From Nanobdellati archaeon (GTDB taxonomy: Archaea > EX4484-52 > WAPT01): a DNA stretch of 30,912 nt. Under the pieces are notes generated by a model. It did no database searches. It worked only from the letters and a program-made list of their open reading frames with translations, and was not told the origin of the DNA. Numbering within the stretch: position 1 is the stretch's first letter; the number at the start of each line of letters is the position of its first letter. Where the stretch lies: assembly GCA_015520605.1 (NCBI GenBank), contig WAPT01000023.1, positions 1 to 30,912 on the forward strand, given 5' to 3'. Positions 1-13,807 of this stretch are shown one piece after another. The position numbers and the translations under genes were made by a program.

Positions 1-869
1 AGCAATTTTATCTCTCTTAAATACCTTTTTAACCCTTCCTTCCATGAAGGCATTCCCAGATTCAGCTTTTTGAGTTTCGCATTCTCAAGTGCTGAAAATC
101 TCGGTCTTTCAGCAAGTCTGCCGAGCTCACCTGAGGAAATGGGTTCAATCTCAATATCCCAGCCGAGCATATCAAAAATAGATTTCGCAAATTCGTACCA
201 AGAACAATAACCTTCATTCACCATATGATACACTCCGAATTCTGGCTCCAGCTTCAAGAACTTTATCAGAGCTGTGGCAACATCTTTGGTATGGGTGGGG
301 CTGATTATCTGATCGTCAACTACCCTCAAGCTCTCTTCTTGTTTCGCTTTTTCTATTACCCAGTTAACGAAGTTACCTCCTTTACCTCTGGCTCCTGCTT
401 TTCCATAAAGAGCTGCAACTCGAATCACATAATGCTTGGGAGAATAATTTCTCGTGAATATCTCTCCAGCGTACTTACTCGCTCCGTAAACATTTACGGG
501 ATTTGGAATATCCGTCTCAACATAAGGCTCTCCTTTTTTACCGTCAAAAACATAATCTGTGCTTATGTAAATATTGACGGCATCGAGCTCATTTACAACC
601 TTCGCAACATTGAGAGCACCAACGGCATTCACATTAAAGGCTTCCTCCGCGCAAATCTCGGCATCATCCACCCTAACATATGCCGCACAGTTAATGATGA
701 CGTCTGGTTTAATTTTCTTTAAAATTGTTAAACTTTTCAAATCGGTAACGTCAACATCCTTATGAGTTAACGGAATAACTTTAAAAGACGGGACTTCATT
801 AAAGACCTCAACGATGTCTGATCCAAGCTGACCGCTCGCACCGATAACAGCAATTTTTACCTGATCCAT
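1..869 (-). CDS. rfbD: dTDP-4-dehydrorhamnose reductase (3' end runs off the window; not in the ORF track)
   Basis: Manual translation from ATG at 869: MDQVKIAVIGASGQLGSD (GxxGxxG), IINCAAY, ISTDYVFDG, NVYGASK (YxxxK), DQIISPT, RPRFSALE. The frame stays open to position 1. It overlaps the rfbC stop (TAATG) and has SD-like AGGTGA upstream. Confidence 0.95.
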   Translation of the reverse strand, partial: MDQVKIAVIGASGQLGSDIVEVFNEVPSFKVIPLTHKDVDVTDLKSLTILKKIKPDVIINCAAYVRVDDAEICAEEAFNVNAVGALNVAKVVNELDAVNIYISTDYVFDGKKGEPYVETDIPNPVNVYGASKYAGEIFTRNYSPKHYVIRVAALYGKAGARGKGGNFVNWVIEKAKQEESLRVVDDQIISPTHTKDVATALIKFLKLEPEFGVYHMVNEGYCSWYEFAKSIFDMLGWDIEIEPISSGELGRLAERPRFSALENAKLKKLNLGMPSWKEGLKRYLREIKL

Positions 870-1426
870 TAAAATACATCACCTTTCTCAATCAATTTTT
901 TTAAGGTGGTCCAACTTTTGTCTTTCTCAGAAAGTATGGGATTTTTTATGGGCCACTCAACACCAACATCAGGATCATTCCATATCAAGCCGCGCTCATA
1001 TTCTGGAGCGTAAACATTATCTACTTTGTATATGACTTCCGCAACATCACTGAGCACGACAAATCCGTGAGCAAAACCACGAGGTATGTAAAGCATATGC
1101 TTGTTTTCCTCAGAAAGTACAGCACCCACCCATTTCCCAAAAGTCGGCGAGTTTCTTCTTAAATCCACCGCCACATCAAAAATTTCTCCTCGCACGCACC
1201 TCATGATTTTAGCCTGTGCGTAAGGTTCTTTCTGGAAATGCAACCCTCTCAGCACCCCGTGCTTTGATCTGGAATGATTATCCTGAACAAAATCACCTTT
1301 TATGCCTGCACTTTCAAACAAATCTTTTCTGTAAGTCTCCATGAAGAAACCCCGTTCATCCTCGAATACCTTTGGGATTATCAGGATCACATCCTCTATG
1401 CCGAGCCTTTTGAATTCAAACGGCAT
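869..1426 (-). CDS. rfbC: dTDP-4-dehydrorhamnose 3,5-epimerase
   Basis: Motifs DERGFFME, QDNHSRS, GVLRGLHFQ, DVAVDLR, PRGFAHGF, YKVDN; SD GGGGTGA upstream. Confidence 0.97.
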   Translation of the reverse strand: MPFEFKRLGIEDVILIIPKVFEDERGFFMETYRKDLFESAGIKGDFVQDNHSRSKHGVLRGLHFQKEPYAQAKIMRCVRGEIFDVAVDLRRNSPTFGKWVGAVLSEENKHMLYIPRGFAHGFVVLSDVAEVIYKVDNVYAPEYERGLIWNDPDVGVEWPIKNPILSEKDKSWTTLKKLIEKGDVF

Positions 1427-2384
1427 ATGTCACCCCCTTGATCAGAGGTTCCCACCACCACTTATTGTTGACATACCATTCCACGGTTTTTCTAAGTCCT
1501 TCCTCAAAGCTCACTTTGGGTTCCCATCCCAGCCTTCTTATCTTGGTTGAATCAATAGAATACCGGTAATCATGCCCGGGCCTGTCCTCCACAAACCTTA
1601 TCAGGCTTTCAGGCTTGTTCAAATACTTTAAGATCAGCTTAACAACATCGATGTTCCTTCTCTCGTCGTTTGCCGCAACATTATAGATCTCTCCGGCTTT
1701 TCCCTTTCTCATAACAAGCTCTATAGCTCCACAGTTGTCCATCACATAAGTCCAGTCTCTAACGTTGGTACCATCCCCATAAAGAGGTAGCGGTTTGTCA
1801 TGCATAGCAAGTATAATAAACTTCGGTATGAGCTTTTCAGGATACTGGTAAGGACCGTAGTTATTGCTAGGCCTGACTATCACAACCGGCAGTCCGTAAG
1901 TCCTGTGGTAAGCTCTGCACAGCATATCTCCCGAGGCTTTTGAGGCTGAGTAAGGAGAGGAGGGGTCAAGCCTGTCCTCCTCTTCAAAAGAACCTTCCCT
2001 TATGGAACCGTACACTTCATCAGTGCTGATATGCACGAACTTATCAATCTCCCTCTTCCTGACGAACTCGAGCAGATTGTAAACTCCAAAAATATTCGTC
2101 CTTATGAACGGTTCGGGATTTTTTATGGAATTATCGACATGTGTTTCTGCGGCAAAATTAACCACAACATCCACACCTCCAACCTTCTCTAGATCCTCAG
2201 CTTTTGTTATATCACCTTTAATCAACTCTATCTTATCCATAACATCCTTCAAGTTTTCCATTCTCCCTGCATACGTGAACTTGTCAAGAACAACAATTTC
2301 AGCATCACTTCCGTACTTCTGCAGAAGCAACCTGACGAAGTTGTTGCCGATAAACCCCGCGGCACCCGTAACGAGAATCCTCAT
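1416..2384 (-). CDS. rfbB: dTDP-glucose 4,6-dehydratase
   Basis: GAAGFIG, DKFTYAG, FAAETHVD, STDEVYG, SPYSASK, NNYGPYQ, DRPGHD; SD GAGGTG upstream. Confidence 0.97.
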   Translation of the reverse strand: MRILVTGAAGFIGNNFVRLLLQKYGSDAEIVVLDKFTYAGRMENLKDVMDKIELIKGDITKAEDLEKVGGVDVVVNFAAETHVDNSIKNPEPFIRTNIFGVYNLLEFVRKREIDKFVHISTDEVYGSIREGSFEEEDRLDPSSPYSASKASGDMLCRAYHRTYGLPVVIVRPSNNYGPYQYPEKLIPKFIILAMHDKPLPLYGDGTNVRDWTYVMDNCGAIELVMRKGKAGEIYNVAANDERRNIDVVKLILKYLNKPESLIRFVEDRPGHDYRYSIDSTKIRRLGWEPKVSFEEGLRKTVEWYVNNKWWWEPLIKGVTYAV

Positions 2385-2394
2385 TCAGAACACC

Positions 2395-3450
2395 TCATAC
2401 GAACACTCTCGAATGATCTCCTATCACGAATTTCTTTCCTTTGGGGTGGCTCTCTTCCTTTATAATTTTCACGTCCCTCCCTATCAAACTCTCAAGCAGT
2501 CTGCCGCCATTTATTATGGTTGTGCCGTCCATTATTATGGAATCCTCCACTTCGGTGTTTTCTATAACACAACCATTACCTATGCTCGTGTACGGTCCGA
2601 TATAAGAATTCCTTATTTTGGTATTTTTTCCTATTACAACGGGCCCTTTAATCGTTGTGTTCTCATCTATTTCAACACCTTCCTCTATCACAACTCTGCC
2701 CACAATCCTGCCTTTAATCTCTGACTTTATGTTCGTTTTCAGATCATCAAGAATGAGGCGATTCACGTCTATTATGTCTTCTGGTTTACCGGTATCCTTC
2801 CACCATCCAGTAACTTTTGTCCAACCAACCCGGTAACCATGGTCGATCAGCCACTGAATAGCCTCGGTAATCTCAAGCTCTCCCCTCCACGAAGGTTTCA
2901 GATGATCTATGGCCTTGTGTATAATCGGTTTAAAAAAGTAAATCCCAACAAGCGCAAGATTGCTCGGAGGAACCTTTGGCTTTTCCACCAACCTCTTTAT
3001 CGTGCCATCGTCGTTAAGCTCAGCAACTCCAAACTGTTGTGGGTTTGGCACTTCACACAACAAAATGGAGGCATCGAAATCACTCATCATGAAATGGTCA
3101 AGATGATCCACTATTCCCTCCTTCAGTATGTTATCTCCAAGGTACACCACAAAATCATCGTTTCCAAGAAATTCTCTTGCTACCTTTACAGCATGAGCTA
3201 TGCCTTTGGGATCGCCCTGATGTATGAATGTGATTTCAGCATCCCAATCTCGGCTTTTTACAGTTTCTATAACCTGTTCTCTATTCGGCCCGGTTATTAT
3301 CCCTATCTGGGTTATCCCGGCCTCTATCATATCCTCTATCGCATAAAAAAGCACGGGTTTGTTAGCCACGGGGATTAACTGCTTCTGCTGGGAGTAAGTT
3401 AGGGGCCTTAATCTGGTGCCATGACCTCCAGAAAGTATCAGACCTTTCAT
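2395..3450 (-). CDS. rfbA: Glucose-1-phosphate thymidylyltransferase, long form with C-terminal beta-helix repeats
   Basis: GGHGTRLRPLT, KQLIPVANKP, LGDN, VEKP, RGELEIT, WKDTG, followed by hexapeptide-like repeats (IKGPVVIG, SYIGPYTSIG). Confidence 0.95.
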   Translation of the reverse strand: MKGLILSGGHGTRLRPLTYSQQKQLIPVANKPVLFYAIEDMIEAGITQIGIITGPNREQVIETVKSRDWDAEITFIHQGDPKGIAHAVKVAREFLGNDDFVVYLGDNILKEGIVDHLDHFMMSDFDASILLCEVPNPQQFGVAELNDDGTIKRLVEKPKVPPSNLALVGIYFFKPIIHKAIDHLKPSWRGELEITEAIQWLIDHGYRVGWTKVTGWWKDTGKPEDIIDVNRLILDDLKTNIKSEIKGRIVGRVVIEEGVEIDENTTIKGPVVIGKNTKIRNSYIGPYTSIGNGCVIENTEVEDSIIMDGTTIINGGRLLESLIGRDVKIIKEESHPKGKKFVIGDHSRVFV

Positions 3451-4083: not shown

Positions 4084-4617
4084 TCACAAATATCCAAGTT
4101 CTCTCATTCTTTCGAGAATGAGTTCAGTTTCCTCCTCAACACTCATTTTGTGGCTTTCAATTCTGACTTCCGGACTTTCAGGCTCTTCATAAACACCGTC
4201 ATAGCCTGTTAAGCCTTTAATCTCACCTTTCACGGCCTTTGCATAGAGCCCCTTGGGATCTCGTCTTATTCTCACCTCCAGAGGAGCGTAAACATAAACT
4301 TCCACAAACCTTCCGATTTCCTTCCTTGCATACTCCCTGACCTTTCTGTAGGGGGAGATCAATGACACGATAACTATTATTCCATTTCTGCTGAGCAGCT
4401 TGGCCATGTGAATCACAATTCTATTATGCATCTCTCTGGCTTTCCTGTCAAAGCCGAGCTCCGGATAAAGTTCCTTTCTTATCTCATCTCCATCCAGCAC
4501 CTCAACCTTGTAACCCATTTCTTTGAGCTTTTTTTCCAGAGCTCTGGCCAAGACGGTTTTGCCAGCTCCGCTAGGCCCTGTAAGCCAGGTCACGAATCCC
4601 TCGCGCATATCAGACAT
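4084..4617 (-). CDS. cysC: Adenylyl-sulfate (APS) kinase
   Basis: P-loop WLTGPSGAGKT, LDGDEIR, SLISPY, RDPKGLY, GEIKGLTG, YEEPE. Confidence 0.96.
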   Translation of the reverse strand: MSDMREGFVTWLTGPSGAGKTVLARALEKKLKEMGYKVEVLDGDEIRKELYPELGFDRKAREMHNRIVIHMAKLLSRNGIIVIVSLISPYRKVREYARKEIGRFVEVYVYAPLEVRIRRDPKGLYAKAVKGEIKGLTGYDGVYEEPESPEVRIESHKMSVEEETELILERMRELGYL

Positions 4618-5996
4618 TCACCCATTAACGCGCTTTTAACACCGAAGAGCTTCAGAATGGTTGGAGCGAAATCATAGATGGTGCAGGTAATTTCTCTTTT
4701 CTTCTCCAGTCCCGGCAAATAGAGAGAGAACACGCCATATTCATCATGCACAGCATCATCCGGGCCGGTATCGTTCTCCCTTAAATAGGGACTGTCATAT
4801 CCTACTGTTCCAGCTGCCCTCCAGCTCAGGTTGTCAAAGTAAACCATCATATCTGGCTTATCTCCCTTAGCAACAGGATAGAGTCTTTCCGGATAGAACA
4901 CCTTCGTATCCCACTTTTCACCATTCGGCCCTCTGATGTTCTTCAGCATTTCAGCAATTTCATCACGAACCTTCCCATAATCGTCTGGATTAATAATACC
5001 TTTTGCCTCTCTGCCTTTAACATTGAGGAAAACTCTGGAATAGTAGCCACCCCATGCCCATGCAACGCTCCTATCCCAATCAACCTCAACTTTATCCAAG
5101 CGTGTAGGACATTCTCGGTTAATCACCTTCCCACCTTTCACTTTGAGCAAACCCTCCTCAATCAGCCACTGGTTTATGGCGAATGCACCTTTCATAGCTT
5201 TTATTCCATGGTCGGAAACTATTGCGATAGCTGTCTCATCCAGATCAACAAGCTTGAGAAGCTTGCCGATCTCCCTGTCTAGAAGTTTGTAGTAATCGGG
5301 AATAACATCCTTATACTTGCTGTTCTTCTCATGAAGATGGTGATTCTCATCAAAGTATTTCCAGAAAGCGTGGTGTATTCTATCAAGTCCTATTTCCACA
5401 AACTGCACATAGTTCCAATCTTTTGTTTCCATTAGGTGTCTAACGAGTTCAAATCTTTTTTCCGTCATCTCCCATATTTTTTCCTTAACCTCATCTCTTT
5501 CCTCTTTCCTGAAAACCACATCAAAAATATAATCCCCAACAATTTTCTCAACCTCAGCTTTCAGCTCCTTTGGGTAGGTGTAATCACAGTTTGTATCGGG
5601 AGTTATAAAGCAGGAGACAAGCCATCCGTTTATCTTCTTTGGTGGGTAAGATGGAGGCACACCCACAATTATGGATTTCTTTCCTTTCTCTCCGATGTAA
5701 TCCCATACCGCTTTTTCTCTTACCATCAGGCTGTGAGCTATCCAGATGTCGTTATAAGATGAGCCCTTTCTGTGCCTGAACCCGTAAAGTCCAAGCTCCC
5801 CTGGGGTTTTGCCAGTGGCCATGCACATCCAAGCAGGTATGGTTATTGCTGGAATACAGCTCTTCATGGGGCCATAAATGGATCTGCTGAGCAGCTTTCT
5901 GATGTTTGGTAAGAAATCCAAAAATCTGTCAAACAACAGGTTAGGGGGAGCGGAGTCCAGCCCTATTACAACAACTTTCCTTACATTTTCGCTCAT
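4590..5996 (-). CDS. Alkaline-phosphatase-superfamily (type I phosphodiesterase/NPP-like) cytoplasmic enzyme
   Basis: IGLD (D14), PAITIPAW (candidate Thr52 nucleophile), TGKTPGELG, DRIHH, SDHG, DAVH; no signal peptide and no CxPxR sulfatase motif. It overlaps both sat and cysC. Confidence 0.88.
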   Translation of the reverse strand: MSENVRKVVVIGLDSAPPNLLFDRFLDFLPNIRKLLSRSIYGPMKSCIPAITIPAWMCMATGKTPGELGLYGFRHRKGSSYNDIWIAHSLMVREKAVWDYIGEKGKKSIIVGVPPSYPPKKINGWLVSCFITPDTNCDYTYPKELKAEVEKIVGDYIFDVVFRKEERDEVKEKIWEMTEKRFELVRHLMETKDWNYVQFVEIGLDRIHHAFWKYFDENHHLHEKNSKYKDVIPDYYKLLDREIGKLLKLVDLDETAIAIVSDHGIKAMKGAFAINQWLIEEGLLKVKGGKVINRECPTRLDKVEVDWDRSVAWAWGGYYSRVFLNVKGREAKGIINPDDYGKVRDEIAEMLKNIRGPNGEKWDTKVFYPERLYPVAKGDKPDMMVYFDNLSWRAAGTVGYDSPYLRENDTGPDDAVHDEYGVFSLYLPGLEKKREITCTIYDFAPTILKLFGVKSALMGECLICARDS

Positions 5997-7147
5997 TCAT
6001 CCTCACCCACGAAAGGATCATCAAAGGATTTAAGCGCATCATACACTTCCTCTCTCATGAAGTGTGGAGGAACTTTTTCACCTCTCGTAATCATCTCTCT
6101 TATCTTCGTACCGCTAAAATACTCTCTATATTCTTTTGGATGGGGACACACCTTTTCATTCACTATGCTCCCGCATTTCTTACAGAAAAAGAACTCTCTG
6201 AAGAACATCGGCACTATCCCGAGATCGGGAAACTCTTCGAATATCTCCTGAGCTTCGTAGGGTTTGTAGAAGTTACCAACTCCTGCATGATCCCGCCCAA
6301 CTATGAAATGCGTACACCCGAAATTTTTGCGCATTATCGCATGATGCACAGCTTCTCTTGGACCGGCATACTTCATCTCGTATCTGACCGTGGCAAGCAC
6401 GGAAGCGTTTGTGGGGTAATAGTTCCTGAAGAGCACCTCATAACACCTCAGGATGACATCATCCTTATAGTCCCCTTTCTTCTTTTTACCTATGACAGGA
6501 TTTATGAACAATCCGTCAACAAATGTCAGAGCCGCTTTCTGGACATACTCGTGCCCCATGTGCGGCACGTTCCTTGTTTGAAAAGCCACTATCGTGTTCC
6601 AGCCCCTCTCTTTGAAGAGCACTCTCGTTTCAACAGGTCTTAATGTGTAAGCTGCGAACGGATTTTCAACCTCATTTAAAAGTTCTATCTCTCCGCCCAC
6701 CAGGTATTCTCCCATATTTATAACTTTCCTGACCCCCGGATGCTCCTCACTGGATGTCCTGAAGACCTTCTCGGAGAACTCCTTTTTATCAAATCGATAT
6801 ATTTCATCAACATACATCCTGGCAATTACTTCCCCACCGTGAAAGAGAAGCACGGCATCACCTTCATCAAAATTCACAGAGTCCTCTGGAGCGTCGAGCA
6901 CTATGGGAATCGTCCACGGCAGATCATTAGGAAGCCTCATATGCTCAAGAACAGATGAGAGTTCATAGCTCCTCATGAAACCTGTCAGCGGCGAATAGAT
7001 TCCATGAGCTATGTTCTCAGCATCTATGGCCACAGCTGTGCTCACAGTCAGCTTTGGAAACTCATCTTTCTCGCTCAGTATTCTCTCCCTTGTTTTTCGT
7101 GCAGCAATTTTTCTAACTAACTTATCTCCATGGGGTTTTGAGACCAT
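5993..7147 (-). CDS. sat: Sulfate adenylyltransferase (ATP sulfurylase)
   Basis: FQTRNVPHMGHE (QxRN/HxGH), YAGPREA, GRDHAG, Zn site CKKC...CPH, SGTKIR. The start is probably ATG 7147 (MVSKPHG); the track starts at GTG 7156. Confidence 0.96.
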   Translation of the reverse strand: MVSKPHGDKLVRKIAARKTRERILSEKDEFPKLTVSTAVAIDAENIAHGIYSPLTGFMRSYELSSVLEHMRLPNDLPWTIPIVLDAPEDSVNFDEGDAVLLFHGGEVIARMYVDEIYRFDKKEFSEKVFRTSSEEHPGVRKVINMGEYLVGGEIELLNEVENPFAAYTLRPVETRVLFKERGWNTIVAFQTRNVPHMGHEYVQKAALTFVDGLFINPVIGKKKKGDYKDDVILRCYEVLFRNYYPTNASVLATVRYEMKYAGPREAVHHAIMRKNFGCTHFIVGRDHAGVGNFYKPYEAQEIFEEFPDLGIVPMFFREFFFCKKCGSIVNEKVCPHPKEYREYFSGTKIREMITRGEKVPPHFMREEVYDALKSFDDPFVGEDE

Positions 7148-7174
7148 ACGTCTCACGATAACTCATAAGCTTTT

Positions 7175-7408
7175 TCAGTCGAGATAGCCGAGAGCCCTCA
7201 ACCTTTCCTTGACCTTTTCCTCTTCTTCTTTGCTGAATACCTCTTCTTTTTCCTCTTCCTCCAGGCTTGCGAGTACCTCCCTGAGCACATAAGTCACATA
7301 GTCGGAAACCGATGTGAATCCCGTATCTTCTATCCTTTTCTTTATTTTCTCATAGAGCGGAGTTGGAATGGAGACAGTAGTATACTTCTTTTTCTTATCC
7401 TCACTCAT
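7175..7408 (-). CDS. CopG-like ribbon-helix-helix transcriptional regulator with acidic linker and C-terminal ERLRALGYLD tail
   Basis: YTTVSIPTPLYEKIKKRIEDTGFTSVSDYVTYVLRE fits an RHH pattern; strong SD GAGGTGA; first gene of the sat operon. Confidence 0.88.
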   Translation of the reverse strand: MSEDKKKKYTTVSIPTPLYEKIKKRIEDTGFTSVSDYVTYVLREVLASLEEEEKEEVFSKEEEEKVKERLRALGYLD

Positions 7409-7420
7409 GCTCTCACCTCT

Positions 7421-7458
7421 TTAATTATACTTAATTACATGTAATTAAATATTATAAA
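7421..7458 (-). promoter_or_regulatory. Promoter of the RHH-sat operon with a perfect 18-bp palindromic operator candidate
   Basis: TTAATTACATGTAATTAA at 7431-7448 is a perfect palindrome, with an extra TTAATTA half-site at 7421-7427. Minus-strand TATA TTTATAAT lies at 7458-7451. Confidence 0.75.
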
Positions 7459-7835: not shown

Positions 7836-9371
7836 TCACCTCACCATTCTTTTCAATATCTTGATCCACTTTTCAACAGGAAGGTCGAGTTTCTGTCCTA
7901 ATTTTCTGACCATAATAATATCCTCCTCATCAAAGGCCCTAATAGTTACAAGAAGCATGGCATAAACGAACCCGAAAACCAGAAGGAAAAGAACCGCCAC
8001 AAAAATCGTGACTCTGATCATGGAGGAGAGGAAACCCACAATACTTATAGAAATCAGGCTGGCAACAATGGATTTAAGATAGCTTGCTGTAAAGGGGTGG
8101 ATTCTCCATGAAAGATAGAGCTTGGATGAGTACAGAGCATTGAGAATGATAATGGCAGTTGCAGATGCCGCAGCAGCACCGACCATTCCGTATCTGGGGA
8201 TGAGAATGTAGTTGAGCAGAATGTTTGTTGTTCCTCCGACCAGACCGGCAAAAAACAGGAATCGCGTGTTCCCGAAAACGATCAGAGTGTATCCGTTCAG
8301 TCCAAGCATGACGTTTATGAGGAATGCGAGGGAGAGTATTCTCAGTGCTGGAGCTGCAGCGAGATAATCATGACCAAACAGTATGTTTATCACGGCCTTT
8401 GGGAACACGAACATGATAACAAATAATGGCAGGGCACCGAACATAACCCATTTGGTAAGAATTTGGTATATTCTGCCTATCTCGCTTATTTTGTTACGCG
8501 CGTACAACGAAGAACAGAAGGGCCCGTATATGAAGGATATGAATCCGAGAAACATACCGAGCTGTTTCGCGATCGGAACGGCAACATTGTAAACACCCAC
8601 CACTTTGCTCCCATAAAAATAACCAAGCATCACGGTATCAGTCCATGCCATCACGAGGGCTATGAGGGATGTTACGGCAAGCGGAGCCGAGAATCTTATA
8701 AGCATCTTGACGGTCTTGAAATCAGGAGCGAGCCTTTTGATCTCAACGAACTTTTTGATTATCATGCTGTACGACAGAAAAACGAAAAGATACACGAAAC
8801 CCACACCGAACACAACGGCATTTATGTTCAGGTCAAGAAGAACGCTGAGAACAGCCACGATGAGTATTCCTGCAGGGATACCAGCGTTGGATATCAGAGC
8901 CACGGCTTTGGCTCGTTCAATTCCTCTCAAAACGGCAACTTCAATTGCTATTAGGGGAGAAATAAAAATGGCAAGTAAGCCGGCAAGAATTGCTGAAGAT
9001 GCATCGGGCTTGTGTAGGAGGTGGATGGCTATAGCATCCTTCATGATGTAAACGAATGCGGTCACAAGAATCGCGGTCAGCGAAACAGCAAAGAGAGATG
9101 AGGTTATGATGTGATCGTATCTTTTTCGCTTACCCTTCAGATACCCTATAAACCTTACAACTCCCTCTCCCATCCCTAGGGTGGCCACCATCGTGGAAAT
9201 GGACAGTATGGTCAGGAACATCACATAAATTCCATACTGCTCCGGCCCGTAATGTCTACCCAATATGACCTTACTGAAGAAGGAGAAAAACTTTCCTGCC
9301 ATCGTGCCCGTGAAAAGATAAGCTGCGCCCTTTGCTATTCTTGAGAGGCCGACACCAACATCGTTTTCCAT
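7836..9371 (-). CDS. Oligosaccharide flippase (Wzx/MOP superfamily)
   Basis: About 14 hydrophobic segments, GPEQYG, FSAPL, WTDTVMLG, VGVYNVA, NILLNYILIPRYGMVGAAAA. The start is probably ATG 9371 rather than 9410, which lies inside aglH. Confidence 0.93.
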   Translation of the reverse strand: MENDVGVGLSRIAKGAAYLFTGTMAGKFFSFFSKVILGRHYGPEQYGIYVMFLTILSISTMVATLGMGEGVVRFIGYLKGKRKRYDHIITSSLFAVSLTAILVTAFVYIMKDAIAIHLLHKPDASSAILAGLLAIFISPLIAIEVAVLRGIERAKAVALISNAGIPAGILIVAVLSVLLDLNINAVVFGVGFVYLFVFLSYSMIIKKFVEIKRLAPDFKTVKMLIRFSAPLAVTSLIALVMAWTDTVMLGYFYGSKVVGVYNVAVPIAKQLGMFLGFISFIYGPFCSSLYARNKISEIGRIYQILTKWVMFGALPLFVIMFVFPKAVINILFGHDYLAAAPALRILSLAFLINVMLGLNGYTLIVFGNTRFLFFAGLVGGTTNILLNYILIPRYGMVGAAAASATAIIILNALYSSKLYLSWRIHPFTASYLKSIVASLISISIVGFLSSMIRVTIFVAVLFLLVFGFVYAMLLVTIRAFDEEDIIMVRKLGQKLDLPVEKWIKILKRMVR

Positions 9372-9393
9372 AGAGGTAGATTGAACTTCATTT

Positions 9394-10389
9394 TTAAAAG
9401 AGATAACCATAATAGATCAAAACGAGAACACATATCAGGAACTCTGTAGAGAGTATGAACACCACCACATCCCTCTCATAAACCTTCTTTTTGATTTTCC
9501 TCAGAATCCACAGTGCAAGATGGGTGAAGTGGTAGATTCCATCGTACGGCATTTCGAGGCTGTTGTCCTTTTTCACTTTTCCGAACGCTTCAGCTTTAAA
9601 CCTCTTCCTGAGATTGAACAGGAAATCGAAATAATATGGTAGGAATATCAGGACGGCGATCTTTTCCATGTTGCCGAGCACGGCCATACACGCAATAAAT
9701 GCTCCCACACCGTAGGTTAATGTGTCCCCAGGAAATACCTTCGCGGGATACCAATTGTAAACAAGAAATGCAAGCAAAGCGAAAACCATGGCAAGACCAA
9801 TCACTGCCAACCAAACATAACCGTTTACATAAGCCACATAGCTGAGGGTGGAGAGAAGAATGACACCCATTCCTGCCTCAAGTCCATTGTATCCAGCAAG
9901 CATGTTGAAAGCATTGCTAGCACCCATCACACCGATGGGCACGATAAAAAGAGGATAGAGGATGCCAAAATTCACAGCTCCAATAAACGGCAGATGCATA
10001 ATACTCTTCCCCGCATTGACCGCCGAGAGTGCATAGGCGGCAAGAAAAGTCAGAGGTGGCTTGTGCCACTGCCTTAATCCTATTTTCCATCCGAGTAGAT
10101 CATCAATCATACCGATAAACGCTATGATTAGGATTGTGAGAAGAGCTGCATAAATGTAAGTCACAACGTTCGTGCTTTTCTCAACGAAAACGAGTTTGGC
10201 AACGAGAAAAATTACGGAAGCCGTGAATCCGGCCATGACTGCTATCCCCCCCATTTCTGCGACTTCTGGTTTGCTGTATTTATTCATGTCTTTTCCTACA
10301 AGACCAATCCTCTTTGCTGCTTTAATCCATTGTTTCGTAAAGAAAAATGTTGCAATGAATGATAAAAGCGGAACAATTATTGTGCACAT
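9394..10389 (-). CDS. aglH: UDP-GlcNAc:dolichyl-phosphate GlcNAc-1-phosphate transferase (GPT/Alg7/AglH type, glycosyltransferase family 4)
   Basis: GKDMNK..EMGG, GMIDDLL, NAFNMLAGYNGLEAG, YPAKVFPGDT (GPT-type rather than MraY FMGD). The start is probably ATG 10389 after SD GGTGG. Confidence 0.88.
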   Translation of the reverse strand: MCTIIVPLLSFIATFFFTKQWIKAAKRIGLVGKDMNKYSKPEVAEMGGIAVMAGFTASVIFLVAKLVFVEKSTNVVTYIYAALLTILIIAFIGMIDDLLGWKIGLRQWHKPPLTFLAAYALSAVNAGKSIMHLPFIGAVNFGILYPLFIVPIGVMGASNAFNMLAGYNGLEAGMGVILLSTLSYVAYVNGYVWLAVIGLAMVFALLAFLVYNWYPAKVFPGDTLTYGVGAFIACMAVLGNMEKIAVLIFLPYYFDFLFNLRKRFKAEAFGKVKKDNSLEMPYDGIYHFTHLALWILRKIKKKVYERDVVVFILSTEFLICVLVLIYYGYLF

Positions 10390-10412
10390 ATCTACGACCA
10401 CCCATCAATTAA

Positions 10413-12932
10413 TTAATTGTTAAAAACACTGTAATCTCTTGCCTGTTTTACCCAGTTCGTGCCGTTGTAAACAATGAGTCCCTTCCAGCCATACTTTTTC
10501 CACCATTTTATTAGTTCATTCCTACTCCTGTCCGGAATGATCGTGTGATTCACCTTGTATATCTTAACTTCCCCGTTATCGAAGACTTTGGTGAGATAAT
10601 CTATACCCTTCCCGTTCATGAAAAACAGTCTATGAAACACCGAATTAAACATGTCCTTCGTGGCGAGTAGGGCGACAGATGAGGTCAGTACCACACACAT
10701 GTTCATAGCTGGCTTGTCCTCAGGAACATCGAGTTTGTAGATGTTATTTTGAGTGCACAAATATTTTATGTAAGCGATGCCCCGGGGTGTGACCAATGCT
10801 ATGCTGCCTCCCAAACCCCCATCATTTTTAATAGGAACCCAGAGAGCATAGTTCCCGCTTCTATAAACAAAAACCGTAACATTGCCTTTCCTCATTGTTT
10901 TCGAGGGGTCGAGGAAGAAATAAGAATAAGATCTGATCTTGTAATAATCCCTCCTTCTCGTGATCATTTGGGCTATTTTGGACATAGCAGCATACTTACC
11001 TATCATGGACGCGTCGACAAGAACATAATCTGTACCCATCATTTCTAGGAAGAACTTTTGCTGCGTCTCATTCATCATACCTGTGAAGTACTGCGCGGTT
11101 GGGATGTTTCTATTTGCAAAGTTGTTTCCACCGTCGAGGTTCGTGGACCTATTCCCCACGGTTTCGAACCAGTATCCAAAATCCCACCAAGATAGTACGG
11201 TGGCGTTGGGTTCGGTTTTTTCCCTTAAAAATTTCATCGCCCCCGCCCAGTTCTTATCGAAACTCGGGGAAAGCGATTTTGCAAGGACTCCGGCGTTAGC
11301 AATATAACCCAACATCCCCGTGAAAACAATGAACCCGAGCACTCCGTAGAGCACATGTTTGATCGTTGTTGCTGCATCCTCGTCTTCAAGCGCAAGTCTT
11401 GAGGGAACATGTTCGACTGCCTGTCTGAAGAATTCCCATAACTTCGCAACACAAAATCCACTCATTATCGAAAACATCAGAGCTAAACCAAACATCCATC
11501 TGATCTTGGAGAGGTAACCAAGCATGGCAACAGCAACCATTGAAAGGTAGAGTGCGGAAATAACACCCTTCTCACTTCTGGCCAGCATGAATATGACAGC
11601 CATGAACGGAAATATGAACATGGCCTGGGCTATGGCATGCCCATGTAATTTAAGAAATTGGTAATATGAAAAAAAGGATGTGAGTAATAAAGCCGTTACA
11701 AGGATCTTCTCCCTCCTTTCCTTAACCCCGCGGACACCTAGGTAAATCATACCAATAAGTGCGAACAACCACATAGGCAATAATTCAAAGAGGAATTTGA
11801 AAGAACTAAGGAAAGAGTTATTCACATATCCTGAAGTGACATAATATAAGCTCAGACTATGTGTGAAGTCATTTACGGTAGGGATTATGTCCTCAGCAAC
11901 CGTCGACTCGACCAGCGCTTGGTGATAAAACAGGTAGTGGTGTATTCCTATGGCTATTCTTGCTATCGTACCAGACACCATACCACCCACAATTAACCCA
12001 ACTACTGCTAAGGAGAACATTATCGGCATGAAATATTCAAACTTCTCTTTCGAAATGAGCTTCTTACGTTTAACAACCTCTCTAATCCATAAAAATACCA
12101 GAGCACCTATGTTAACAGCAAATATGGTTTTGGTTATTTTGTAAATTGGCATGAAAAGCGGAATCAGTGAAAGCAAACACACAATGGTGTAGGTCTTCAC
12201 CACACTCTTAGGGACATTGTTGACCAGCAACAGTGCGAAAATAAAAAGAGCATATCCCAGATAGAGCTGCTGAACGCCCCCCCACATGGTGGCCATTATC
12301 GCCATACTCAGGCCAGAAGCTATCGCAGACAAGACGGAATCTCTTTTTATCGCTCGCACAAAAAAATAGAATGAGAGAAGCATGAAGAATCCAGCATTCG
12401 GTTCTTTTTCAAAGAATCCCGCCGAAGTTCTGAACATCACTCCCGCAAGTGTCGCGTAGAAGAATGCTGCAGCAAGCCCGGAGTACTTGTTGTATATCTC
12501 TTTTCCTATCAAATAAATCAGTACGGTGAAAAGAGCACCCATAACCGCAGGCTCGATCTTGGCGTATACCCAAAAATCAATGGAATGCCTCAGAAGTTTT
12601 GTGAGGATGAGGTATATGAAAGCAGGGACTATGTACATCCCCGGATACTCTTCATGCGGATCTATACCCGTTGGGTAGTATCTCATTAGGTCAAGATGGG
12701 GTAATTGTAGGCTGTGCGTCACAGCATACCAGTTCATCCTATAAAGATAGTATGGGTCTATGGCAGTGAGGTACTCGAATCTTGCTGGCAGAATTCTGTA
12801 GTAAAATGCAAGCATGGTTATGGCAACAACAAGAAGCTCGACATGATGGTCGTAAAGAAAGTTCAGAGCATGATCGAGAAAACATCTGGATGGTTTTTTC
12901 TTAACCTTCAAACTCTCCTTTTTTGTTGCCAT
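10413..12932 (-). CDS. aglB: Oligosaccharyltransferase STT3/AglB
   Basis: DPYYLYR, RTSAGFFEKE, STVAE (TIXE-like), about 13 TM segments, SWWDFGYW, DGGN, DASMIGKYAAM. The start is probably ATG 12932, since the track start overlaps ubiA. Confidence 0.95.
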   Translation of the reverse strand: MATKKESLKVKKKPSRCFLDHALNFLYDHHVELLVVAITMLAFYYRILPARFEYLTAIDPYYLYRMNWYAVTHSLQLPHLDLMRYYPTGIDPHEEYPGMYIVPAFIYLILTKLLRHSIDFWVYAKIEPAVMGALFTVLIYLIGKEIYNKYSGLAAAFFYATLAGVMFRTSAGFFEKEPNAGFFMLLSFYFFVRAIKRDSVLSAIASGLSMAIMATMWGGVQQLYLGYALFIFALLLVNNVPKSVVKTYTIVCLLSLIPLFMPIYKITKTIFAVNIGALVFLWIREVVKRKKLISKEKFEYFMPIMFSLAVVGLIVGGMVSGTIARIAIGIHHYLFYHQALVESTVAEDIIPTVNDFTHSLSLYYVTSGYVNNSFLSSFKFLFELLPMWLFALIGMIYLGVRGVKERREKILVTALLLTSFFSYYQFLKLHGHAIAQAMFIFPFMAVIFMLARSEKGVISALYLSMVAVAMLGYLSKIRWMFGLALMFSIMSGFCVAKLWEFFRQAVEHVPSRLALEDEDAATTIKHVLYGVLGFIVFTGMLGYIANAGVLAKSLSPSFDKNWAGAMKFLREKTEPNATVLSWWDFGYWFETVGNRSTNLDGGNNFANRNIPTAQYFTGMMNETQQKFFLEMMGTDYVLVDASMIGKYAAMSKIAQMITRRRDYYKIRSYSYFFLDPSKTMRKGNVTVFVYRSGNYALWVPIKNDGGLGGSIALVTPRGIAYIKYLCTQNNIYKLDVPEDKPAMNMCVVLTSSVALLATKDMFNSVFHRLFFMNGKGIDYLTKVFDNGEVKIYKVNHTIIPDRSRNELIKWWKKYGWKGLIVYNGTNWVKQARDYSVFNN

Positions 12933-12958
12933 GCTCCCAAATAAAGACGATGAGCTTT

Positions 12959-13807
12959 TTAAGAGTTTCCCCACACTCCGTAGATTCCAGCAAAACACAG
13001 AATGATCCAGATCAGCAGCCCGATTAACCACACCTTGTCGAGGAAGATCAGCTCGGTGTTTCTGGCAATCCTGTCATCAACCTCGGTAAGGTAAAGGTGT
13101 CTCAGCACCAGAAATGTTGCCGGGATTAAACTGAGCATAAGAAACGTGTTCGTATGCTTGCTCTGGAAGGAATAGAGAGCATAGCTCACCAGCACGATCG
13201 AAGCGAGGATGGTGCGCATCCTGTCAAAAACATGTTCTTTAAGCTTGTCGTTTTTTATCCTCGCATCCCCCGTCCTTTTTCCGGACGCCAGAAATAAAGC
13301 TATAAAGAAAATCATAACAACCAGCCATGGCGATACTTCGACCCCAACAGCATACGCTCCCGCTACAGCTCTTATTATGAAGTTGAACGCTAGGCTGTGA
13401 ATATCCAAAATTTCGATTTTTTTCAGAAAAAACGAGTATAAAGATGTGTTGATCACGAGCAGAACCGGGAAAAACAGGAACGGAATGTTGACCATTAATC
13501 CAGTAATGGTGGAAAGAATTAGGAGGAACAGAGCAACAATAATGGCTTCCCTCACACTTATTTTTCCGCTCGCAATCGGTCTATGTCTCTTCTCCTTATG
13601 CTTTCTGTCATCCTCTCTATCCCTTATATCATTAATTATATAATTAAAGGATGAAGCAAAAGCAAGGGAAAAGAATGCAAACACACTCTTAACAACACTA
13701 TCAACATTAAAAAGCACACCTCCAAAAAACAGACCAACAAACACCACAAGATTTTTGTACCACTGATGCACTCTGAGAAGCTTGAGGTAATTCTCTATCA
13801 CACCCAT
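12959..13807 (-). CDS. UbiA-family polyprenyl-phosphate phosphoribosyltransferase (DPPR-synthase-like)
   Basis: LLRVHQWYKNLVVF, NYIINDIRDREDDRKHKEKRHRPIASG, YSFFLKK..ILD, FIIRAVAG, LASGKR. These are hallmarks of the decaprenyl-phosphate phosphoribosyltransferase subfamily rather than DGGGP synthase. Confidence 0.82.
   Translation of the reverse strand: MGVIENYLKLLRVHQWYKNLVVFVGLFFGGVLFNVDSVVKSVFAFFSLAFASSFNYIINDIRDREDDRKHKEKRHRPIASGKISVREAIIVALFLLILSTITGLMVNIPFLFFPVLLVINTSLYSFFLKKIEILDIHSLAFNFIIRAVAGAYAVGVEVSPWLVVMIFFIALFLASGKRTGDARIKNDKLKEHVFDRMRTILASIVLVSYALYSFQSKHTNTFLMLSLIPATFLVLRHLYLTEVDDRIARNTELIFLDKVWLIGLLIWIILCFAGIYGVWGNS

Follow-up and report, generated by a model that had tools for sequence, protein, structure and literature searches.

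A portable C-terminal helix on an archaeal ribbon-helix-helix regulator is predicted to dock in the catalytic cleft of a sulfate-activation enzyme

The window analyzed here is the whole of contig WAPT01000023.1 (30,912 nucleotides, assembly GCA_015520605.1) from a Nanobdellati archaeon of GTDB lineage EX4484-52; WAPT01. It carries a compact minus-strand operon of four genes for the production of 3'-phosphoadenosine 5'-phosphosulfate (PAPS), encoding in this order a ribbon-helix-helix (RHH) regulator, ATP sulfurylase (Sat), an enzyme of the nucleotide pyrophosphatase/phosphodiesterase (NPP) type, and adenosine 5'-phosphosulfate (APS) kinase (CysC). The regulator ends in a 20-residue segment, here called the LGY tail, that also closes enzymes of the same pathway in other organisms, and models of the complex place this segment in the catalytic cleft of the operon's NPP-type enzyme, which has no such tail. 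We favor a reading in which the regulator is an autorepressor of the PAPS operon and its tail docks on the NPP cleft, so that control would be coupled to the enzyme. We hold this reading tentatively, at a rough probability of 0.45. The narrower proposal, binding of the tail to the NPP cleft wherever both are present, is one that we lean toward accepting.

RESULTS

The regulator and its tail

Four features of the regulator were delimited from the open reading frame (ORF), its homologs, and an AlphaFold2 (AF2) model with its per-residue confidence (predicted local distance difference test, pLDDT).

7175 to 7408, minus strand: gene of the RHH regulator, 77 amino acids (aa), first gene of the operon (ORF call, homologs, AF2)
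7265 to 7387, minus strand: RHH DNA-binding core, residues 8 to 48, strand KYTTVSIP and two helices (alignment; RHH_1 match to residues 10 to 36, below threshold)
7238 to 7264, minus strand: acidic linker, residues 49 to 57 (dip in AF2 pLDDT, alignment)
7178 to 7237, minus strand: portable LGY tail helix, residues 58 to 77, FSKEEEEKVKERLRALGYLD (homolog endings, alignment, AF2, complex model)

Translation of the ORF gives a C terminus of ...EEVFSKEEEEKVKERLRALGYLD and agrees with an earlier note on this DNA, which had described a 77-aa RHH protein ending in FSKEEEEKVKERLRALGYLD after an acidic linker. At an E value of ≤1e-3, 2506 homologs were found. Source names given to homologs read CopG or Arc/MetJ-type. 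The best 120 share 77 to 100% identity, and those with a named source belong to Archaeoglobales, Ferroglobus, Thermococcus, Methanocaldococcus, Thermoplasmatota, and Altiarchaeales. The ending RLRALGY[LI][DE] is found in 114 of these 120 homologs and LG[YF] in all of them. In an alignment of 58 sequences, the core residues T11, P15, L18, T29, G30, F31, S33, S35, Y37, V38, V41, L42, R43, and E44 are invariant, as are L70, L73, G74, and Y75 of the tail; the linker between them keeps its composition and varies in sequence.

The AF2 model has helices at residues 16 to 26 and 34 to 55 with pLDDT of 89 to 93, and the strand is absent from this monomer model. Confidence drops to 63 in the block of residues 51 to 60, and the tail helix spans residues 60 to 72. 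Pfam family RHH_1 (PF01402) covers residues 10 to 36 at 16.8 bits, below its cutoff of 20.5. A sequence search of the PDB found no solved relative of the regulator; the best match, the RHH domain of NikR, covers residues 11 to 52 at an E value of 0.47. The [FY]-[ST]-x-acidic start of the tail and the Gly near its end read like helix caps, an interpretation that draws on general knowledge of helices.

The tail on other enzymes of the pathway

The core of the tail was written as the pattern [ED]xx[IV]xxRLxxLGY, which the window's regulator matches. A search with the window's NPP-type enzyme yielded 12,145 relatives, of which the best 150 representatives were examined. A strict C-terminal tail pattern was found in 21 of the 150, compared to a mean of 0.0 in 20 shuffles, and 21 of the 22 pattern matches among these relatives were C-terminal. 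In the source genome (863 kb, 27 contigs, 91% complete), it matched 2 of 6792 stop-to-stop ORFs, the RHH regulator and CysC. Internal matches were limited to one in each of the three protein sets scanned and two among the ORFs of the source genome, and the Sat, DHH, and sulfotransferase sets of the loci examined contained 0 matches. A hidden Markov model (HMM) of the RHH tails alone was too insensitive: it detected 8 of the 150 NPP relatives and, among the 4243 ORFs from the metagenome loci described below, 0, compared to 59 by pattern. It was superseded by the pattern with shuffles and by a broader profile, A5, built from RHH and NPP tails, in which L15, L18, G19, and Y20 are invariant and R14 is present in at least 90%. 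In the 863-kb genome, A5 detected the RHH regulator only (E = 2.3e-11), with the next best match at E = 0.24. A 764-aa ORF on the minus strand of contig C19 of the same genome (G000) ends in a loosely similar ...RKIERIKELRKPEELGYFG and has no A5 match at E ≤1.

The statement in the earlier note that many sulfatase/NPP-type proteins end in an acidic linker and an RLxxLGY helix was borne out for NPP enzymes by 22 of the 150 best representatives, which have L..LG[YF] among their 20 C-terminal residues. An acidic stretch comes before this motif, and in many cases [FY][ST] does so as well. Examples of these endings are ...YSSEDVAMIEERLRSLGYLD and ...FSEEEEELVKQRLMELGYM. On a FastTree phylogeny of 161 NPPs (25 tailed, tail columns removed), the tail state changes at least 13 times, compared to 19 to 25 times among ten listed of 200 label shuffles, so that the tail is labile but clustered on the tree.

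The expected pairing of tail-less NPP enzymes with tailed RHH genes was also seen. Where the NPP gene stands beside a tailed RHH gene, 0 of 29 enzymes with intact C termini carry the tail, compared to 21 of 150 (Fisher P = 0.019, for kin that are not independent).

Bacterial loci were collected from metagenomes with a six-sequence alignment of tailed NPPs as the seed, the 25-sequence alignment being too diverse. The 80 loci obtained (L083 to L162), taken as soil-bacterial from their sequences, are biased to one soil-bacterial clade because of this seed. Among their 133 NPP ORFs with intact ends, 58 are tailed and 75 are tail-less. Most of the loci have a tail-less NPP paralog of ~620 aa directly upstream of a tailed NPP of ~487 aa, an arrangement suggestive of a receptor and a donor from a single family.

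In 8 of 11 bacterial CysC proteins (L103, L114, L121, L126, L127, L150, L160, and L162), the tail is appended after the native end of the enzyme (...LEDLGYV...YSAEEEARIRARLVRLGYLES). CysC is tailed in all seven loci in which a tail-less NPP of ~460 aa stands beside Sat and CysC; two CysC proteins near tailed NPPs lack the tail, and in one locus both enzymes are tailed. The only two bacterial RHH genes in the set are both in loci with a tail-less NPP. Fisher P values for complementarity among these related bacterial sequences were 0.067 and 0.073.

The tail was also found on three of seven CysD proteins. The short archaeal CysD (266 to 267 aa; L069:4272-5072, L070:7220-8020, and L080:3031-3834) ends in ...MMQKLRALGYM and the canonical CysD in ...AMEDRKKEGYF; the tail may derive from the native CysD end or have replaced it. 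Taken together, the sequence comparisons indicate that the tail is a portable module, carried by RHH regulators, NPP-type enzymes, CysC (appended), and short CysD.

The CysC of the window is a different case. According to the earlier note it ends in the same way as the regulator, and its last helix, ILERMRELGYL, is loosely similar, but it gave no match to A5 at E ≤1 and scored only 7.4 bits (E = 0.26) with the RHH-only HMM. Among CysC proteins of archaeal operons, 19 of 54 end in [LM]G[YF][ILVM], and others end in ...RRGLIE, ...KKNII, and the like. The ending is the native last helix of APS kinase and is not counted here as a second copy of the tail; the tail module may itself have arisen from this helix. 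A further suggestion of the earlier note, that LGY could be a docking peptide common to Sat, CysC, and NPP, gains support from the tails appended to bacterial CysC (8/11, and 7/7 with a tail-less NPP) but not from Sat, which is never tailed, or from the native CysC end in the window.

Predicted docking on the NPP-type enzyme

4590 to 5996, minus strand: NPP-type enzyme (PF01663), 468 aa, tail-less, predicted receptor of the tail (Phosphodiest, 5e-47; 4-bp overlap with the Sat stop)

The NPP-type enzyme ends in ...APTILKLFGVKSALMGECLICARDS, shortly after the conserved APTIL..G motif, and lacks the tail, as the earlier note had observed. Residues conserved in 91 to 100% of 78 NPP relatives include T52, which we take to be the nucleophile position, and D14, D205, H209, D262, H263, and H417, presumably the positions of the metal ligands. 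The PDB sequence search with this enzyme returned no relative at E ≤1e-3, and no solved structure of a comparable complex exists.

Complex models were made with the NPP-type enzyme (78-row alignment) and RHH residues 44 to 77 (55 rows); two unrelated 34-residue partners and one unrelated 522-residue receptor served as controls. The interface score ipSAE (interaction prediction score from aligned errors) was 0.88, 0.86, and 0.86 for the enzyme with the RHH tail and 0.02 for the best of the three controls. The partner chain had a pLDDT of 70 or more, and the runs agreed in 91% or more of their contacts. Of 157 solved complexes, 116 reached the mark used for docking, as did 2 of 215 mismatched pairs, counts that are approximate because our own alignments were used. 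An interface between NPP and the RHH tail, as imagined in the earlier note, is thus predicted at 0.86 versus 0.02 for the best control, and the model supports docking of the tail in the NPP catalytic cleft.

In the model, the interface on the enzyme lies in the catalytic cleft and consists of residues 51-52, 72-74, 86, 88-90, 117-118, 130-134, 137, 159, 161-163, 206, 299-300, 315-318, 395-397, 410, and 413. On the RHH side it consists of residues 57-58, 62-63, 65-67, and 69-77, which include the invariant L70, L73, G74, and Y75 as well as F58, K67, and A72. Tyr75 is modeled in contact with I51, T52, G72, F73, and R74, V66 and L70 with F73, I86, and P133, and L73 with D159 and R206. The contact residues of the enzyme have a conservation of 0.68, compared to 0.52 for the whole protein, and the conserved contacts include T52, G72, P118, P133, D159, R206, G316, G317, Y318, and D413.

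A relative that carries the tail in cis, P0145, was modeled with AF2. Its linker (residues 455 to 468) is disordered at pLDDT below 50 and is followed by a helix at residues 472 to 484 with block means of 83 and 69, a model that is compatible with docking.

Two other roles for the tail were considered and dropped by reasoning alone. A proteasome-type hydrophobic-Tyr-X end does not fit the last three residues, and a secretion or sorting signal does not fit carriers that are soluble, cytoplasmic-type enzymes.

A probable phased operator upstream of the regulator gene

7422 to 7447, no strand assigned: putative operator, three TAATTA hexamers (7422 to 7427, 7432 to 7437, and 7442 to 7447) in 10-bp phase (upstream-region statistics)
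7451 to 7458, minus strand: TATA-like box TTTATAAT, with 3 bp between it and the first hexamer of the operator (role judged from position only)

The three TAATTA hexamers lie between the TATA-like box and the ribosome-binding site and start codon of the RHH gene. Hexamers, counted with one variable position permitted, occur at 2.34 per 100 bp upstream of 77 RHH family genes; shuffled sequences give 0.51 (0.77 at most), and 91 further upstream regions from these loci give 0.24. Sharp maxima in the spacing fall at 10 bp (76 pairs), 20 bp (40 pairs), and 30 bp (15 pairs), and the phased repeats are kept upstream of family genes across archaeal phyla. The 863-kb genome contains no other 10-bp-phased TAATTA pair. 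The array is therefore likely the operator of the RHH protein, and we infer that this protein is a dedicated autoregulator that would be arrayed along one face of the DNA, over the site where transcription is expected to start. Because the array spans that start, the protein is most likely a repressor.

The operon and its neighborhood

5993 to 7156, minus strand: Sat, ATP sulfurylase, 18 bp after the RHH stop (PF01747, 3.6e-91; PUA_2, 7.8e-48)
4084 to 4617, minus strand: CysC, APS kinase, 177 aa, last helix ILERMRELGYL at 4087 to 4119 (APS_kinase PF01583, 1.7e-57)

The NPP-type gene overlaps that of CysC by 28 bp. Linkage of the regulator to this pathway was assessed in 80 loci from species-representative genomes; the RHH ORF was called in 71 of these, and 45 had at least 5 kb downstream. 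Sat follows the RHH gene in 69 of 82 loci. Downstream of the RHH gene in the 45 loci are Sat or CysD (41 loci), CysC (39), a DHH phosphoesterase (33), an NPP-type enzyme (20), and a PF00685 sulfotransferase (20), with both of the last two in 2 loci and neither in 7. CysD-CysN replaces Sat in 5 of the 45 loci, where the RHH protein and its tail are unchanged.

The NPP-type enzyme and the small PF00685 sulfotransferase alternate at the same operon position (loci L003 to L082). Because of this alternation, the NPP-type enzyme may do a PAPS-spending job rather than, or besides, removing pyrophosphate.

The operon in the window is surrounded by glycan genes (3 to 3450 and 7836 to 13031), including RmlD, RmlC, RmlB, and RmlA-like genes for dTDP-rhamnose, a Wzx-type flippase, a GT4 transferase, and an STT3/AglB oligosaccharyltransferase. 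This setting suggests that PAPS is spent on glycan sulfation, giving sulfated surface glycans, and not on assimilation. The NPP-type enzyme is 67 to 75% identical to the copies in Thermococcus and Archaeoglobus, and the operon may be laterally acquired. Within the window's own order the RHH gene has a patchy distribution: of 41 genomes searched, two yielded it, the source genome and one of the same genus (G002) with a 100% identical protein, and the other 39 did not.

A search for longer tail-bearing proteins found seven and no new family. Five of them (P0271 to P0275, 212 to 221 aa) are double-RHH fusions, in which a second, N-terminal RHH-like segment and a middle domain are fused to the tailed RHH protein; PF24434 is a precomputed assignment for one of these. 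A second small tailed paralog (...EEEEEIKxRLR[SA]LGY[LI]) lies in or near the operon in L041, L050, L053, L067, L068, L075, and L082, which are of Thermoproteota, Bathyarchaeia, Asgard, and Korarchaeota type. In L075, the two small genes diverge around a single palindromic TTAATTACATGTAATTAA.

DISCUSSION

In the reading that we favor, RHH dimers would bind as an array to the three TAATTA hexamers between the TATA box and the start codon, and the last 20 residues of each subunit would be a self-contained amphipathic helix on an acidic tether, acting as a docking peptide. This helix would enter the catalytic cleft of NPP so that Tyr75 lies against the nucleophile Thr52, and its hydrophobic face (F58, V66, L70, and L73) would pack on F73, I86, and P133. 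Regulator and enzyme would form a trigger-enzyme pair. An idle NPP enzyme would hold the repressor tails, and substrate would compete for the cleft and displace them, so that enzyme occupancy would set the strength of operon repression. The enzyme would then act as a corepressor. The sign of this effect is a guess, favored by analogy with CymR-CysK, where the enzyme stabilizes the regulator on DNA.

Several observations weigh against this reading. The RHH tail is unchanged in 25 of the 45 operons, which lack NPP; 20 of these 25 have the PF00685 sulfotransferase in its place. A search of 10 sulfotransferase-type genomes with the NPP profile found nothing in five and fragments in two, and the remaining three have an unlinked long paralog of 541 to 560 aa with a basic helix of its own at the end. 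Two of the five without NPP, G042 and G044, are complete chromosomes, and A5 finds the RHH tail only in each. The tail must therefore have a partner or role that is independent of NPP; the sulfotransferase at the NPP position, some other partner, or the RHH array itself may account for it. PMC4463584, citing Lee 2009, presents the Thermococcus onnurineus ortholog as a pyrophosphatase that is active by itself, so catalysis does not require the tail. The docking score is the model's own confidence and may reflect learning from relatives with the tail in cis. The anticorrelation statistics are weak (P = 0.019, 0.067, and 0.073) for sequences that are related. The proposal of the earlier note that the regulator supplies the tail in trans therefore stands in part. 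It is favored by the docking model (0.86 versus 0.02) and by the absence of tails from all 29 adjacent NPPs, but because the tail is invariant in the RHH family with or without NPP (25/45 operons, G042, and G044), it cannot be regarded simply as a part missing from the enzyme.

In one alternative, the tail acts within the regulator. Mnt tetramerizes through an additional C-terminal helix. In the same manner, the tail could be a helix that links adjacent RHH dimers and gives cooperativity, and the helix on the enzymes would serve their own oligomerization with no cross-talk. This would account for a tail that is invariant whether or not NPP is present and that is the only tail of the genome in G042 and G044. 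An operator with at least three phased sites calls for cooperative binding, and in the AF2 model the tail helix stands by itself at the end of a flexible linker. Self-association leaves unexplained why the same 20-residue sequence (F/Y-S/T...RLxxLGY) is found on NPP, CysC, and CysD of one pathway, why the tails are distributed in a complementary manner, and why the NPP docking score is high with clean controls. We consider it unlikely, though it deserves to be weighed.

The tail could instead dock on another partner in the pathway, such as the sulfotransferase, CysC, or a protein outside the operon, with NPP as one of several receptors or as an artifact of the model; we rate this as unlikely to the same degree. 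NPP and PF00685 alternate at one position (each in 20 of 45 loci, together in 2), and the RHH tail is the same with either. No enzyme is more constant than CysC (39 of 45 loci and four of the five CysDN-type genomes), and the tail resembles the native last helix of CysC. Two of the candidates fall away. Sat cannot be the common receptor because PF01747 is found in 0 of the 5 CysDN-type genomes, which keep the same RHH tail, and the DHH 3'-phosphoadenosine 5'-phosphate (pAp) phosphatase is excluded here because its gene is absent from the window's operon.

A long shot is that the tail is a substrate as well as a plug, with the invariant Tyr O-sulfated or nucleotidylated by a PAPS-using enzyme, either the NPP-type enzyme or the sulfotransferase that replaces it. 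If so, the repressor and the tailed enzymes would read the PAPS supply through a sulfotyrosine switch, and the modification would explain why the tail is unchanged in operons of both types. Least probable of all is that the shared ending reflects convergence or chance among short amphipathic helices with no common function: the motif is short and the likeness of the window's CysC is weak, but the pattern is found in 21 of 150 NPP relatives and in no shuffle, is almost strictly C-terminal, is confined in the loci examined to sulfate-activation proteins (with 0 in the Sat, DHH, and sulfotransferase sets), and ends 114 of 120 RHH homologs identically.

Sulfate activation begins with an energetically uphill step that depends on product removal, so cells gain from tying the enzymes of the pathway together and from sensing its load. 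A 20-residue helix that moves among a repressor, an enzyme of phosphodiesterase fold, an APS kinase, and CysD would be a new and simple docking tag of one pathway. If the tail plugs the active site as modeled, it would link enzyme occupancy directly to transcription in archaea and some bacteria. Our favored reading, that of an autorepressor with an enzyme-docking tail, would also help to settle the real job of the puzzling NPP-type enzyme.

The operon itself and its copG-type gene are already known. PMC8268124 presents PYCH_17520 of the Pyrococcus yayanosii cluster pych_17520-17560 as a putative copG transcription factor with a potential role in regulating the pathway, and PMC4463584 describes the T. 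onnurineus cluster TON_1704-1707 and names TON_1705 a pyrophosphatase, citing Lee 2009. As described there, both clusters resemble the window's operon in having a copG-type gene, ATP sulfurylase, type I phosphodiesterase/nucleotide pyrophosphatase, and APS kinase in the same order; the window's operon differs from them in having no DHH pAp phosphatase gene. The available parts of the two papers make no mention of the tail, an operator, or a regulator-enzyme contact, and "copG" occurs once in that of PMC8268124. A literature search, sparse for subscription journals, likewise found nothing on the tail, its mobility, the operator, or regulator-enzyme contact, and we found the tail, its mobility, the operator, and the predicted contact nowhere in print.

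The closest structural matches of a tailed NPP relative by Foldseek, applied to its model, were ENPP1/3 and the Xanthomonas NPP 2GSN (E = 1e-18 to 1e-16; query-normalized TM scores, 0.52 to 0.59; identity, 12 to 17%). The window's enzyme resembles the NPP/ENPP phosphodiesterases in conserving the catalytic Thr and the metal ligands, and we know of no C-terminal LGY helix in a solved NPP. The regulator resembles MetJ, CopG, Arc, and Mnt in its small size, in its predicted strand and two helices, and in its tandem short operator repeats overlapping the promoter. Unlike those proteins, it scores below threshold with RHH_1 and has a C-terminal helix in common with enzymes of the pathway that it would regulate.

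A parallel is found in sulfur metabolism, where CymR is an Rrf2-type regulator and CysK is a pyridoxal phosphate enzyme. According to PMC4961446, CysK stabilizes CymR on DNA in Bacillus subtilis, and CysK partners dock by a conserved C-terminal residue. Like CymR-CysK and the CysE-CysK cysteine synthase complex with its tail insertion, the system described here would join a sulfur-metabolism enzyme to a transcription factor, with a C-terminal tail predicted in the active site. It differs in that an RHH protein and an enzyme of the alkaline phosphatase superfamily, whose folds are unrelated to those of CymR and CysK, would be joined by a 20-residue helix rather than by a few terminal residues, in a contact known from a model. 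Such a link would be comparable to that of CymR-CysK but built from unrelated parts.

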